Made by a program: the position numbers and the translations under genes | Part shown: positions 10,972-30,556 of the stretch, piece after piece | How the letters are laid out: the number at the start of each line of letters is the position of its first letter | Numbering within the stretch: position 1 is the stretch's first letter | Notes under the pieces: model-generated | Seen by the model: only the letters and a program-made list of their open reading frames with translations | The model's database searches: none | Told to the model about the DNA's origin: nothing | Assembly (NCBI RefSeq): GCF_900232105.1 | Contig: NZ_LT934425.1 | Coordinates: 2,040,001-2,072,000 of the forward strand | From: Candidatus Kuenenia stuttgartensis | GTDB taxonomy: Bacteria > Planctomycetota > Brocadiia > Brocadiales > Brocadiaceae | DNA: 32,000 nt | Direction: 5' to 3'

Positions 10972-11121
10972 GTAAGAGTGTAGTTTTTTGAAAAATTCCA
11001 ATAATAGCGATGTTTGCCTAATAGTGTAGGAGCGAAGCATTTGCCGTAAATTGTCATAAATGCCTTCATACCCAAACGGGCAAATGCTTCGACCCTACTT
11101 TTTCAAAAACTAAAGTGTTAC
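10972..11121. repeat. Nested composite repeat: outer TIRs (GTAAGAGTGTAGTTTTTTGAAAAA / TTTTTCAAAAACTAAAGTGTTAC) enclosing an inner GTAGGAGCGAAGCATTTGCC...GGGCAAATGCTTCGACCCTAC palindrome
   Basis: Inner arms are 11026-11045 and 11078-11098. The outer ends match elements at 29745-29886 and 30435-30556 and parts of 23116-23370 and 25562-26090. It lies directly upstream of the SNF2 gene, at the right edge of the island. Confidence 0.8.
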
Positions 11122-14492: not shown

Positions 14493-14772
14493 GTAACTAT
14501 TCAGCGTAAACATTACGGCTGCACCCCCGCTTGTTCTCAAACCCTGTGTTGAGCCTGCCGAATTATCAGTTTGGAAACACATTTATCTGGGAAACTCCGG
14601 TTTTTCATACGGGTTAAGGCTTGCAAGCCATGGTTTAACGTTTAGGAATTTCAAGGTTAGGACTGAAAGGCTGTTAGTGTATATAGCCAGGGGTGCAGTC
14701 CTGGTTATATGCTTTCTGCTCTTCAGGCCTGTTGTATTTCGGTTGCTTAATATATTACTAATGAATAGTTTC
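14493..14772. mobile_element. Older, degenerate copy of the GTAACTATTCAGCGTAA-TIR MITE
   Basis: The left end GTAACTATTCAGCGTAAAC is identical to the copy at 25675. Interior blocks are shared (CAGTTTGGAAA..., GAAACTCCGGTTT). The right end is degenerate, TTACTAATGAATAGTTTC (14755-14772). Flanks GAATCATT / GAATTGTT match at 6 of 8 positions, as expected for an old target-site duplication. Confidence 0.55.
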
Positions 14773-19467: not shown

Positions 19468-19812
19468 ACTCCTGCCTTCTTAATTGGTGCTGTTTTCATA
19501 GGGTACTTTTTCGGTTTTTTGAAAAAAGGCAATTAGTGAATATTTGTAACAATTTAGTTTTTTGAAAAAGGCATGAGATTTTGATGTTTTTATGAAAACG
19601 CATGAATAAACTTTTGATACGTGCTGGATTTTGTTAACATTTAAAGCAATTGAAAAAGGCATTTTGCTTTACCAGCGGTTCTTATATCAAAATAACGACC
19701 CACAGAAAGGTTGCATGGCGTTTTCCTGCAAAGGTATCATAAAAAGCATGGAAACATTCTTTCTCCGTTTTTTTAGGAGAGTAAATAGAAAACGGAAACG
19801 GGAAATAATAGG

Positions 19813-23115: not shown

Positions 23116-23370
23116 CTGGCATAACCGGAACCAAACAAGTACTAAATAAAAAATACGAGGCACGAGGCACGAAGCACGAAACAAATTCCAAAATACAAAA
23201 TCCCAATGAACAAAACCGTAACACTTTAGTTTTTTGAAAAACCGGGTTTTTAAATAGTTGAAATTTAGAATTTGTTTAGAATTTCGTATTTAGCTTTCGG
23301 GTTTCACCATTAAACATTTTGCCAAAAAGCACGCACTGACGAATGGAAGTGTGCAAAGAAATTACTGATA
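23116..23370. repeat. Left copy (L) of a ~255-bp mosaic repeat, inverted relative to 25562-26090
   Basis: The reverse complement of 23116-23370 aligns end to end with 25562-26090 once the MITE at 25675-25932 is removed. It has 3 rather than 4 copies of a 7-nt unit (CGTGCTT-like, about 23155-23177). Confidence 0.85.
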
Positions 23371-23520: not shown

Positions 23521-25557
23521 ATGGATTTTTTCTTTGTAAACTCCAAAATATCTGAACGGAAAGTGAAGATATGGAATTCAAATGGCCTGCACGCGCGGCC
23601 TGCAACCAAATTTTCCGAAATTGCCAATAAATATACTTCTGAGATACGCGTGGAAGCAAAGGGTAAAAATATTGATGGCAAAAGCATCATTGAGCTTTTA
23701 ACGCTTGGTGCGGAAAATGGCACGGAGTTATTAATAAGTGCGAAAGGGGTGGATTGTGCAGAAGCGCTGGACGCTCTGGAAGAACTGGTGAATAGCAAGT
23801 TTGAAGAAGAATTTATGGAAATCCGAAAAGGCATAGCCGTTTCACCGGGGGTTGTGATCCGGCAGGCTTTTTTGTTTGAGAGCGAAGGCTTCCGGATACC
23901 ACGCCACGTCATAAAAAATGAGGCAGTTGAAGATGAGGTTTGCAGACTCGAAAAAGCGATCGATGCCTCTAAAAAAGAAATAGAGGATTTGGAAAAGAAG
24001 GTTTCTGAGAATTTAGGTTCTGAAATAGGGTCCATTTTCGGCACTCACAGAATGGTTTTGCAGGATGCACGGTTGAAAGATGAAATTATAAAACGGATTC
24101 GGAAAACCAACTTTACGCCTGAATTTGCAGTTTCTCTCGCCTTGCGTGTATATATCAGGAAATTTCAGGATATTAAAGATTCATACCTGGCGGAAAGGGT
24201 AACAGATATCTTTGATGTTGAACGCCGTCTTTTAAGAAATTTGTTGGGTGAAAAGAGGGAAGAACTTAAAAATCTTGAGGAAGAAGTAGTTTTAGTGGCG
24301 CACGACCTTACCCCTTCCCAAACGGCCATGCTTGATCCTCAAAAAGTGAAGGGTTTTGCCACCGATGGCGGAGGACGTACTTCTCATACGGCAATCGTTG
24401 CGCGTGCATTGGGGATTCCTGCAGTGGTAGGGCTTGGCACTGTTACCTCGGATGTTTTTGGAGGTGATATCGTAATTGTAGACGGAAACCGGGGATTGGT
24501 AATTGTCAGGCCAGACGATGAGACGTTAGCAACGTACCAAAGTAAGGTAAAGAGTATCGATGTTTTTGAGAAAAAACTGGCGATAGAACTAAAAGACCAA
24601 CCTTCCACCACGGCGGATGGAAGACATATTTCCATTTTCGGCAATATTGAATTTCCACGGGAAATAGGTGTAAATTTAAACTACGGTGCGGAAGGGATAG
24701 GCCTTTACAGAACGGAGTTTCTCTATTTGAATTCTCCAACGCCTCCGACAGAAGAGCAGCATTTGGAGGCATACACTACCGTTGTTCAGGAACTAAAGGG
24801 AAGACCTGTTATCATCAGAACGCTTGATTTAGGTGCAGATAAGCTGCCATACCTGGAACATAGAAAAGAGGGAAATCCTTTCCTTGGGTGTCGTTCTATA
24901 CGTTATTGTTTTGAAAACCCTTCCATATTTAAAATACAGCTTAGAGCCTTGCTGAGAGCCTCTGCTCTGGGAGAGGTGAAAATATTGTTTCCCTTAATTT
25001 CATCCATCCAGGAACTGAGACGGGCAAAACAGATGGTGTATGAGACGATGGAAGATCTGGACAAAGAGAATATTTCCTTTGATAAAAACGTCAAAATGGG
25101 AACGATGCTGGAAGTCCCCTCTTCTGTTATGATTTCAGACATGTTGGCAAAAGAATGCGATTTTTTTAGCATAGGCACAAACGATCTTATCCAATATTCT
25201 TTGGCGGTTGATAGAAACAACGAACGGGTGGCATATTTATATTGTCCTGTACATCCGGCGATTTTAAGGTTTTTGAAATTTGCGATAAAATCTGCACATG
25301 AAAATGATATTCCTGTTGGAATTTGCGGCGAAATGGGAGGGGAACTGGAATATACGATCCCCCTTGTAGGGCTTGGTCTGAAAGAGTTTAGCGTCGCTCC
25401 CGCAACAATCATACCCGAGATGAAAAAGATTATCCGGTCTGTTTCTTTTGAAGAAGCCAGGGAAGTGGCGGAAACTGTATTTAAGTTTGACAATCCGGAA
25501 AAAACCAAAAAATATCTTAATGATTTTGTAAGAAAAATTTTACCGGAAGTATATTAA
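23521..25557 (+). CDS. ptsI: Fusion of HPr/NPr phosphocarrier domain (N-terminal ~95 aa) with PEP-protein phosphotransferase Enzyme I
   Basis: HPr motifs NGLHARPATKF (active-site His) and DGKSIIELLTLGA. There is no stop before the EI N-terminus IRKGIAVSPGVVIRQAF. EI active site is GGRTSHTAIVARALGIP. PEP-utiliser C-terminus has IGTNDLIQYSLAVDR and CGEMGG. Confidence 0.9.
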   Translation: MDFFFVNSKISERKVKIWNSNGLHARPATKFSEIANKYTSEIRVEAKGKNIDGKSIIELLTLGAENGTELLISAKGVDCAEALDALEELVNSKFEEEFMEIRKGIAVSPGVVIRQAFLFESEGFRIPRHVIKNEAVEDEVCRLEKAIDASKKEIEDLEKKVSENLGSEIGSIFGTHRMVLQDARLKDEIIKRIRKTNFTPEFAVSLALRVYIRKFQDIKDSYLAERVTDIFDVERRLLRNLLGEKREELKNLEEEVVLVAHDLTPSQTAMLDPQKVKGFATDGGGRTSHTAIVARALGIPAVVGLGTVTSDVFGGDIVIVDGNRGLVIVRPDDETLATYQSKVKSIDVFEKKLAIELKDQPSTTADGRHISIFGNIEFPREIGVNLNYGAEGIGLYRTEFLYLNSPTPPTEEQHLEAYTTVVQELKGRPVIIRTLDLGADKLPYLEHRKEGNPFLGCRSIRYCFENPSIFKIQLRALLRASALGEVKILFPLISSIQELRRAKQMVYETMEDLDKENISFDKNVKMGTMLEVPSSVMISDMLAKECDFFSIGTNDLIQYSLAVDRNNERVAYLYCPVHPAILRFLKFAIKSAHENDIPVGICGEMGGELEYTIPLVGLGLKEFSVAPATIIPEMKKIIRSVSFEEAREVAETVFKFDNPEKTKKYLNDFVRKILPEVY

Positions 25558-25561
25558 TACT

Positions 25562-26090
25562 TTATCAGTAATCTCCTTGCACACTTCCATTCGTCAGTGC
25601 GTGTTTTTTGGCAAAATATTTAATAGTGAAACCCGAAAGCTAAATACGAAATTCTAAACAAATTCTAAATTTTAGTAACTATTCAGCGTAAACGATACAC
25701 GGCTCGTTCCCAAACTCCAGTTTGGGAATGCATTTGTTCGAGAAACTCCGGTTTCTCGCCTGTTTGCTGATAGATAGGGAATAAAATCACAGGGTTAAGA
25801 CAGTTTGTAATTCGTCAAGTCTGACACGCACTGGAAACAAAGTTTCCAGTGCAATTGTGTTCCCAAACTGTGGTTTGGTAACGAGTTGCGCTCTGATCTC
25901 CGGTAGTTTAATAAATTACGCTGAATAGTTACAAATTTTAACTATTTAAAAACCCGGTTTTTCAAAAAACTAAAGTGTTACGGTTTTGTTCATTGGGATT
26001 TTGTATTTTTGAATTTGTTTCGTGCTTCGTGCTTCGCGCTTCGTGTTTCGTATTTTTTATTTAGTACTTGTTTGGTCCTGGCTATGCCAG
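25562..26090. repeat. Right copy (R) of the mosaic repeat, interrupted by a MITE
   Basis: See 23116-23370. Contains 4 units of the 7-nt tandem (26021-26050) and ends in CTGGCTATGCCAG. Confidence 0.85.
25675..25932. mobile_element. 258-bp MITE with 17-bp perfect terminal inverted repeats GTAACTATTCAGCGTAA and an 8-bp target-site duplication AAATTTTA
   Basis: TIRs read directly. AAATTTTA occurs at 25667-25674 and 25933-25940. The uninterrupted paralogous site in repeat L (23259-23266, reverse complement AAATTTCA) is the empty site. No ORF inside. Confidence 0.9.
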
Positions 26091-26786
26091 TTTAAGAATG
26101 TATATCTTTACGGTAAAGTTGTTTTTTTCACCTCACTGTTTTATGAAGGATGGCTGGCCATAGGAGAAAAAATACGCATTCGTTTTTCCAAATCGGGGGA
26201 TATTCGGTTTATTTCCCATAATGATTTGATGAGAACCATTGAACGGATAATACGAAGAGCAAATATCCCCATCGCAATGTCCAAAGGTTTTAATCCTCAC
26301 CCAAAAATATCCATGCCGTTAGCGCTTGGTGTTGGCATGAGCGGAGAAGATGAAATTTTGGAATTGGAGTTGCTCCATCATGAACCGCTTGAGTTACTGG
26401 CGGAACGGTTCCGGAGGCAATTGCCGGAAGGGATTCGCATTGTTTCGGCCCGGCAGATACCGCTATCGGAAAGAGGCGCTGTTGATAATGTGACATATAA
26501 GATTATTTTTAAAAATAAAGATATTCTGCAAACCTTAAAAATTGAAGATTTCTGGAATGAACATTCTATCGTAATAAAACGCATGAAAAAAGAGGTGCAA
26601 AAATCCGTAGAAATCAGATCTTCTGTTCAAAAAATCTGGCGGGAGAACGAAGCCCTGTTTTTAACTTTCCGATTGACGCCGGATGGTATGCCGAGGCCTG
26701 AAGAAGTCGTAAGTGCCCTTGGGGTCGATATAAATAACGAGCTTTTTGAAATTATCAGGACGGAAGTGGATATCTCTTCTGTATAA
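26022..26786 (+). CDS. TIGR03936/DUF2344-like radical-SAM-associated protein (commonly linked to RNase E/G genes); start codon uncertain
   Basis: The conserved core starts at KIRIRFSKSGDIRFISHNDLMRTIERIIRRANIPIAMSKGFNPHPK (about nt 26169). The only upstream in-frame GTG codons (26022, 26043) lie inside repeat R. Confidence 0.7.
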   Translation: MLRASRFVFRIFYLVLVWSWLCQFKNVYLYGKVVFFTSLFYEGWLAIGEKIRIRFSKSGDIRFISHNDLMRTIERIIRRANIPIAMSKGFNPHPKISMPLALGVGMSGEDEILELELLHHEPLELLAERFRRQLPEGIRIVSARQIPLSERGAVDNVTYKIIFKNKDILQTLKIEDFWNEHSIVIKRMKKEVQKSVEIRSSVQKIWRENEALFLTFRLTPDGMPRPEEVVSALGVDINNELFEIIRTEVDISSV

Positions 26787-29056: not shown

Positions 29057-29223
29057 ATAGGCTGTTTATTTTCACCATAAAATCAATTTCTCCATTTCTT
29101 TTAGATTTGGAGTGGTAATATAGTATTACTCTGTAAAAACGTACTTTCTTGATAATAGTTTGCCCACCCCTAAGCTGGCAAGCATGAAATCCGAAACAAA
29201 TTCTAATGACGAACTGATTTTCG

Positions 29224-29259
29224 CACTCGTTCCCAAATGCTACAGCTTGGGAACGAGTG
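29224..29259. repeat. Perfect 13-bp-stem hairpin CACTCGTTCCCAA-(10 nt)-TTGGGAACGAGTG, a solo copy of the hairpin module found inside the MITE
   Basis: Arms 29224-29236 and 29247-29259 are exact reverse complements. The same CTCGTTCCCAAA / TTTGGGAACGAG motif occurs in the MITE copies at 25675 and 29393. Confidence 0.8.
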
Positions 29260-29392
29260 TTTAAACAAGCACGAAATCCGAAAGAAGTATTCGTTTAGCA
29301 TTCCAAATAAATTCCCTGAAAAACAGTGACCATATCATATCCACTTCCGCGATTATCATAATTAATCACTTGGGCACTTTTTGACAAAAAAG

Positions 29393-29519
29393 GTAACTAT
29401 CCGGCGCGATTTATTAAATTACCGGAGATCAGAGCGCAACTCGTTCCCAAACAGATACTTCACTAAGTTCAGTACAAGGTTTGGGAACGAGCCGTGTATC
29501 GTTTACGCTGAATAGTTAC
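29393..29519. mobile_element. 127-bp internally deleted copy of the same MITE (opposite orientation) with a perfect 8-bp target-site duplication CAAAAAAG
   Basis: Both ends are homologous to the two ends of 25675-25932. The right TIR is perfect and the left TIR matches at 13 of 17 positions. CAAAAAAG occurs at 29385-29392 and 29520-29527. Confidence 0.85.
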
Positions 29520-29744
29520 CAAAAAAGGCACTTCAGCCGTTCTGGATTTTAGTTCGCAGGATTAAAGTAAAGTGTCCCTGGAATTACCTTCCCATACTGG
29601 TCACGGACTTTACGGTATCCACCATTTCATTTCTTTTTTATTGTTAACGGGCATTTTTTTTCTCAAAAAATTCATCTTTTAAAAAAATCCATTAAAATGG
29701 TATACTTCTAACAATTAAAATTAAGATGCAAAATATAATTGTAA

Positions 29745-29886
29745 GCAACGCCTCAGTTTTTTGAAAAAAACCATTAATAGCGATGTTTGCCGCAATAATG
29801 TAGAGGCGAAGCATTTGTTATAAATAAGTTCATACCCAAACGGGCAAATGCTTCGCCCCTACTTTTTCAAAAAACCAAATTGTTGC
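29745..29886. repeat. Nested composite repeat of the same architecture as 10972-11121
   Basis: Outer ends are GCAACGCCTCAGTTTTTTGAAAAA / TTTTTCAAAAAACCAAATTGTTGC. The inner palindrome is GTAGAGGCGAAGCATTTG (29800-29817) / GGCAAATGCTTCGCCCCTAC (29843-29862). The interior TAATAGCGATGTTTGCC is shared with 11003-11017. Confidence 0.8.
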
Positions 29887-30426: not shown

Positions 30427-30434
30427 AACAATCG

Positions 30435-30556
30435 TGACACTTTAGATTTTTGAAAAACGCAAGAACGCAAGAACGAGAGGCAAGGATGTCCGCCGTCCCT
30501 ATATCGGGCGGCAAACATCGTTAGTATTGGAATTTTTCAAAAGACTAAAGTGTTAC
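30435..30556. repeat. 122-bp member of the GTAACACTTTAG-TTTTTGAAAA TIR family with a different core (central hairpin CCGCC..GGCGG)
   Basis: Ends are GTGACACTTTAGATTTTTGAAAA / TTTTCAAAAGACTAAAGTGTTAC. The interior GGCAAACATCGTTAGTATTGGAATTTTTC is the reverse complement of the segment seen at 10989-11017. Confidence 0.75.

Follow-up and report, generated by a model that had tools for sequence, protein, structure and literature searches.

A non-coding MITE nested in a mosaic repeat of Kuenenia stuttgartiensis and a resident IS66-family insertion sequence with matching tips

Results

The window studied here is a stretch of 32,000 nucleotides (G000:C1:2040001-2072000) of a genome that consists of one contig of 4,406,153 bp with 41.1% G+C. 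Between the HPr-EI gene and the DUF2344 gene in this window lies block R, a mosaic repeat interrupted by a 258-bp element (Table 1; positions are those of the window unless given as genome positions). An earlier note, made from the letters of the window, had described this element as non-coding, with perfect 17-bp TIRs and 8-bp flanks, and a direct reading of 25667-25940 confirms each of these features. The element is short and has no transposase, its longest ORF being 35 amino acids. When folded as single-stranded DNA, it reaches -58.8 kcal/mol (z = -8.6 against shuffles). A known RNA family was ruled out as its identity, because an Rfam search with the 258-bp element returned no match. The element is a real non-coding MITE. 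One other copy in the genome (at 3136715) is 100% identical with it, and two others differ by a single nucleotide.

Table 1. Features of the window and of the partner insertion sequence. Positions are those of the window, except for the partner IS, which is given in genome positions.
Feature	Positions	Strand	Remarks
Block R	25554-26091		Mosaic repeat of about 272 bp with nested MITE and duplication; missing in three congeneric species
MITE, A-type ends	25675-25932		258 bp, non-coding, strongly self-complementary
Left TIR GTAACTATTCAGCGTAA	25675-25691	+	17 nt; first 14 nt identical to one resident IS66-family IS tip
Right TIR TTACGCTGAATAGTTAC	25916-25932	-	17 nt; perfect reverse complement of left TIR
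Left 8-bp target-site duplication AAATTTTA	25667-25674		Single copy in two element-free public assemblies
Right 8-bp target-site duplication AAATTTTA	25933-25940		Perfect match to left copy
Uninterrupted paralogous target AAATTTCA in repeat L	23259-23266	-	L continues through the site
Short-form MITE	29393-29519		127 bp; 8-bp duplications CAAAAAAG at 29385-29392 and 29520-29527
Decayed copy, B-type end-subfamily	14493-14772		Flanks GAATCATT / GAATTGTT, 6/8 match
Solo hairpin CTCGTTCCCAA...TTGGGAACGAG	29227-29258		11-bp stem; same palindrome as in the MITE
Intact partner IS (three copies)	249734-251457; 3091273-3092992; 2867059-2868775		1717-1724 bp, single ORF; 8/8 duplications

The empty form of R was reconstructed by removing the 258-bp element and one duplication, and was BLAST-searched against the genome. 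It aligns with repeat L in one block of 270 bp at 91.9% identity that spans the junction. The claim that the element interrupts R at a site through which L reads is thus borne out, and the homology of L, on which that claim depended, holds on formal alignment. In some strains the target in L reads AAATTTTA instead of AAATTTCA, owing to a SNP at 23260. The modules that make up L and R recur across the genome as dispersed repeats (more than 100 matches), and several of the other copies are also uninterrupted at the target. The HPr-EI and DUF2344 genes are only 0-35 nt apart in all three congeneric species (G001, G002 and G003), so block 25554-26091, the repeat together with its MITE, is species-specific; its absence was also aligned base by base with G002. 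Against the background of these three species R counts as an insertion too, which makes the MITE a nested one. Where L lies, G002 shares just the outer parts of the repeat, and the 82 nt between them differ.

Repeat R seems to have arisen later than the mosaic repeat L, as an inverted copy of it, and the edges of R (25554 and 26091) possibly carry a short duplicated TTAA(T/G)A. A 7-nt tandem unit of the GCACGAG/CTTCGTG type, found at 23155-23161 in L and at 26019-26025 in R, varies in copy number among strains. Elsewhere in the window, about 160 bp (29067-29225) that include a module found in the mosaic repeats, CTAAGCTGGCA...GAAATCCGAAACAAATTC, are missing in G002, and this stretch ends exactly at the conserved solo hairpin.

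The 17-mer TIR has 46 exact matches on one strand of the genome and 43 on the other, rising to about 100 per strand when up to three mismatches are allowed. Using the sub-terminal 41-74 nt as queries, we have identified 152 distinct MITE termini of two end-subfamilies (48 A1, 47 A2, 32 B1 and 25 B2), which form 46 nearest-neighbour pairs of 70-4577 bp. The flanks are identical at 8 of 8 positions in 24 pairs, at 7 of 8 in three and at 6 of 8 in five. When the flanks of the same pairs were displaced by 10-50 bp as a control, none of the 230 comparisons reached 7/8, which excludes chance as the source of the 24 perfect pairs. The copy search proposed in the earlier note has thus returned TIRs and duplications that are consistent genome-wide, and the length of the duplication is constant across many independent sites. 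The duplications are richer in A+T than the genome (76.5% versus 58.9%), and position 2 is an A in 21 of 25. The insertion signature is not universal among the 127-bp copies, many of which lack matching flanks (0-6 of 8).

The copies fall into size classes of 126-129, 227-258, 280 and 302 bp, along with larger ones. The 22-bp steps from 258 to 280 to 302 bp reflect short versus long loops in two hairpin modules. Four copies of the 258-bp form are 0-2 nt apart, and a fifth differs by 9-11 nt. Two large TIR pairs of 2294 and 2864 bp were considered as autonomous elements and rejected, because the IS5-like and Tn5-like genes inside them belong to foreign ISs nested in MITEs. One ORF of 743 amino acids (L011 892-3123; genome 2191931-2194162) is nested in a B-type MITE with a perfect 8-bp duplication and joins an N-terminal DruA (Druantia) domain to the DNA-binding, DDE and dimerisation domains of a Tn5-type transposase. 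We further noticed an 80-bp mini-element (genome 249558-249637) with two A1-type ends and unmatched flanks, located 97 bp from an intact partner IS.

A search of 38 Brocadiaceae genomes gave full-length MITE matches in the four genomes of this genus and in no other. Outside the genus there is one MITE fragment of 175 nt (G010:C93:593-776), in another genus of the same family, which is 90% identical; the housekeeping genes that flank it reach only about 74% identity. Between MAGs of Kuenenia and Brocadia, the partner transposase has 82-93% identity. The identity of the fragment as against its flanks, together with that of the transposase, suggests that horizontal exchange may take place among anammox genera.

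A second MITE-like family, with GTAACACTTTAGTTTTTTGAAAAA ends, occupies 10972-11121, about 29742-29886 and 30434-30556 of the window, and solo ends of this type lie near 19546, 23218 and 25958. These ends match one tip of an IS66-family element of about 2.29 kb, distinct from the 1.72-kb IS described below and present in four copies that are 99.8% identical (genome 830576-832863 and others).

Two further copies of the MITE family and a solo hairpin lie in the window. The 127-bp copy has its own perfect 8-bp duplication, as had been noted, and its left TIR is degenerate, with 13 of 17 positions matching and all four changes being transitions. Its description as an internally deleted 258-bp element did not hold. 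The 127-bp form has one perfect hairpin with a long loop of 27 nt, as in the 280- and 302-bp forms, and this loop is missing from the 258-bp form. A simple deletion of the 258-bp form was therefore rejected, and the short form is related to the 280/302-bp forms. This copy is present in every K. stuttgartiensis-level contig examined and is precisely missing in G002, which has a single CAAAAAAG between flanks that are 91-97% identical. The decayed copy does have flanks matching at 6 of 8 positions, as first reported, but belongs to the second end-subfamily and not to that of the 258-bp element. It is present in all strains examined. At its site G002 lacks about 360 bp and keeps GTAA(CTAT), with a CTAT microhomology at the junction. 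This pattern is suggestive of an old insertion that was imprecisely deleted at a later time rather than of an empty site. The occurrence of one hairpin module by itself, previously placed at 29224-29259, was likewise seen. This solo hairpin is conserved at the orthologous place in G002, and the palindrome has six further solo copies in the genome, each more than 400 bp from any MITE end.

We then compared the MITE site among strains. The HPr-EI protein has exact matches in many assemblies, and ten places were read at the site. Eight of the ten contigs encoding the identical protein have the MITE at the same position, and two have an empty site: CAADGZ010000022.1 (GCA_900696675.1) and WYAV01000054.1 (GCA_011525635.1). 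Among the contigs with the identical protein is CP049055.1, which is Ca. Kuenenia stuttgartiensis strain CSTR1 (PMC7709395). In the two empty contigs, ...CTAAATTTTA is directly followed by ACTATTTAAAAACCC; they are exactly 266 bp shorter, keep one AAATTTTA and have flanks 99.6% identical to those of the filled site. The empty allele should be real and not an assembly artefact, since assemblers do not collapse repeats as short as 8 bp. Filled and empty sites thus exist among strains for the 258-bp copy and between species for the 127-bp copy. Of the three sites at which presence or absence had been proposed for comparison, 25675 is polymorphic among strains and 29393 among species, and 14493 is occupied in all strains and not cleanly empty in G002. 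The strain polymorphism and the 258-bp copies only 0-2 nt apart uphold the earlier view of a recently active non-autonomous element.

The polarity of this polymorphism was judged from neighbouring SNPs. Two downstream SNPs (27860 and 27879) separate the groups: here the empty strains agree with the outgroup G002, and every filled strain has the other, derived state. These SNPs, by placing the empty strains with the outgroup, favor the insertion as the derived state at 25675-25932. The upstream side groups the strains differently: a 7-nt indel and several SNPs are common to the two empty strains and three of the filled ones, so that a simple tree needs either loss or recombination. The two empty strains could accordingly be read as having lost the element precisely, by slippage or recombination between the 8-bp duplications, with no recent insertion behind the polymorphism. 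Given the upstream SNP grouping, recombination between strains must be assumed, and the polarity argument is blurred. Precise loss between 8-bp repeats is nevertheless a rare event, the two downstream SNPs unite all filled strains against it, and the 100% identity of the window copy with another copy argues for its youth. We consider precise loss quite unlikely, and recent insertion remains the preferred reading.

Other copies were also compared among strains. The 258-bp copy at genome position 3557981 is fixed in all strains examined. A neighbour-protein look-up for the copy at 3136715 found nothing to compare, and for the copy at 1958492 the sole match was a contig that breaks inside the MITE. 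On one metagenome contig (L134, near 1145; ENA ERZ27309507 k141_4147), homology to the locus in the studied genome begins within the target duplication of the 3557981 MITE, and what lies upstream is a ParE/RelB pair; either the locus was rearranged at the MITE edge or the contig is a chimera of the assembly.

A cognate transposase with the same TIRs had been predicted to exist elsewhere in the genome, and three intact copies of such an IS were found. A PF03050 profile search of the genome gave 14 matches. The intact ISs encode one ORF of 473-484 amino acids that matches PF03050 (DDE_Tnp_IS66) with 174-176 bits over profile positions 2-283 of 284 and also contains DUF6444. Only one other ORF of at least 60 amino acids lies on the transposase strand (66 amino acids, without Pfam match), and no ORF of tnpA or tnpB size is present. 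Among the three, one pair is 99.4% identical, and the remaining copy has 94% identity with each member of that pair. Their duplications are AAATTTTG, GACAAAAG and CAAATTTC, and 8/8 flanks (ACAAAAAG and GAAAAAAG) are also retained in at least two more copies that other insertions have interrupted. The tips read GTA(A/T)CTATTCAGCG (GTAACTATTCAGCG / GTATCTATTCAGCG; GTAACTATTCAGCGAAAATA and GTATCTATTCAGCGTATTTT). An IS66 (TnpC)-type DDE transposase, a single ORF, GTAA tips and 8-bp repeats are the features of the ISBst12 group, and the partner IS has all of them.

The MITE shares 14 exact nucleotides with one tip of this IS and 17-18 of the first 20 with each, a likeness confined to the terminal 14-20 nt. 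For want of any interior similarity between the two, a derivation of the MITE from the IS by internal deletion was rejected, and only the tips link the MITE to the IS. The MITE TIRs are in this way shared with transposase-encoding elements of the same genome, the three intact PF03050 ISs. All own transposases between GTA(A/T)CTATTCAGCG tips are of the PF03050 type; the Tn5-like and IS5-like genes inside the two large TIR pairs belong to nested foreign ISs. Among the families named in the earlier note as makers of 8-bp duplications, IS66 therefore stands, and ISL3 and IS256-like elements drop out, no such transposase lying between these tips. In at least five phyla (Planctomycetota, Gammaproteobacteria, Desulfobacterota, Bacteroidota and Chloroflexota), homologues that are 40-97% identical to the transposase also lie between GTA(A/T)CTATTCAG tips, which are thus a conserved trait of the transposase clade.

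The MITE might instead have been moved by another transposase, either that of a different resident IS66-family element or one whose element was lost or resides in a co-resident bacterium. At least two other groups of IS66-family elements are indeed resident (PF03050, 132-135 bits). Moreover, the MITE tip (...GCGTAA) resembles IS copies of other bacteria more than it resembles the resident ISs: ...GCGTAA(T/A)TT matches tips of homologous ISs in Gammaproteobacteria and Bacteroidota MAGs at up to 19 of 20 positions, and the resident value is slightly lower. The other resident IS66 elements have tips (GTAACACTTTAGTTC... and GTAACCGTTCAC...) that are clearly unlike those of the MITE, and among the resident elements the GTAACTATTCAGCG tip is found in the 1.72-kb IS alone, of which three copies are intact. 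Another transposase is therefore very unlikely to have moved the MITE, and the resident 1.72-kb IS remains the favored partner.

Discussion

What is directly observed is the anatomy of the element, the family of copies to which it belongs, an IS with matching tips, sites without the element and the polymorphism among strains. Taken together, these observations make it very probable that the 258-bp element is a non-autonomous MITE mobilised in trans by a resident single-ORF IS66-family (ISBst12-group) DDE transposase, and that it was recently inserted into the older repeat R. Judging from the tips, the transposase would be that of the 1.72-kb IS specifically, and the cutting would proceed as follows. 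The transposase may recognise the GTAACTATTCAGCG tips common to IS and MITE and cut AT-rich targets (about nAWTWWTn) with a stagger of 8 bp; repair of the gaps would then give the 8-bp duplication. Mosaic repeat R is the older of the two: the K. stuttgartiensis lineage would have gained it downstream of HPr-EI before the MITE recently entered it. That these repeats are instead REP/BIME-like structural palindromes dispersed through recombination or gene conversion, as their strong self-complementarity and the palindromes found alone might suggest, is already refuted by perfect 8-bp duplications of otherwise unrelated sequence at at least 24 sites, by the clean empty sites and by tips identical to those of a transposase-bearing IS.

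The element is a well-documented and very clean case of ordinary mobile DNA, and conceptually it is nothing new for transposon biology. The ISBst12 branch of IS66 has been little studied, and the element provides for it a clean, fully documented pair of a MITE and its partner IS; the host is an environmentally important bacterium not yet obtained in pure culture. The polymorphic MITE sites could serve as strain markers in anammox reactors, and the repeats account for some breaks in short-read assemblies. A comparison of Kuenenia strains attributed rearrangements and plasticity to more than 200 transposase genes and did not discuss MITEs (PMC7709395). Our literature search found no paper linking Kuenenia with MITEs. 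It is a rather doubtful but wider reading that the MITEs, at least one more IS66-derived family and the mosaic repeats together form a major undescribed source of strain variation in Ca. Kuenenia stuttgartiensis, and that the palindrome CTCGTTCCCAA...TTGGGAACGAG is a functional REP-like or terminator module. If this were true, MITEs would distribute palindrome modules between genes, and an insertion such as the one separating the HPr-EI gene from its neighbour would alter transcription.

Among known systems, the partner IS resembles the ISBst12 group (ISBst12 and ISDge4) in its size of about 1.7 kb, its single DDE_Tnp_IS66 ORF of about 450-480 amino acids and its 8-bp duplication. ISDge4 of Deinococcus geothermalis, a laboratory-active member of the group, has the tips GTGACTACTCAGCA / GTAACTGCTCAGCA, an 8-bp direct repeat and a transposase of 449 amino acids (PMC12898284). 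The tips of the partner IS begin with GTAAC and resemble GTAACTGCTCAGCA. The MITE has the same tips and duplication length as the group but, unlike its members, lacks a transposase or an IS-like interior, and is a non-autonomous passenger. Like other bacterial MITEs that resemble their parent IS only in the TIRs, it is small and intergenic, has TIRs, a target-site duplication and a hairpin-rich interior, and occurs in many copies with size variants and nesting. It differs from them in being a specific sequence family and in carrying a palindrome that also exists alone. With the classical three-ORF IS66 elements (tnpA-tnpB-tnpC; IS66 and IS679), the partner IS shares the Pfam family of the transposase, the GTAA tips and the 8-bp duplications, but it differs from them in being 1.72 kb long with one 473-aa ORF and no ORF of tnpA or tnpB size.
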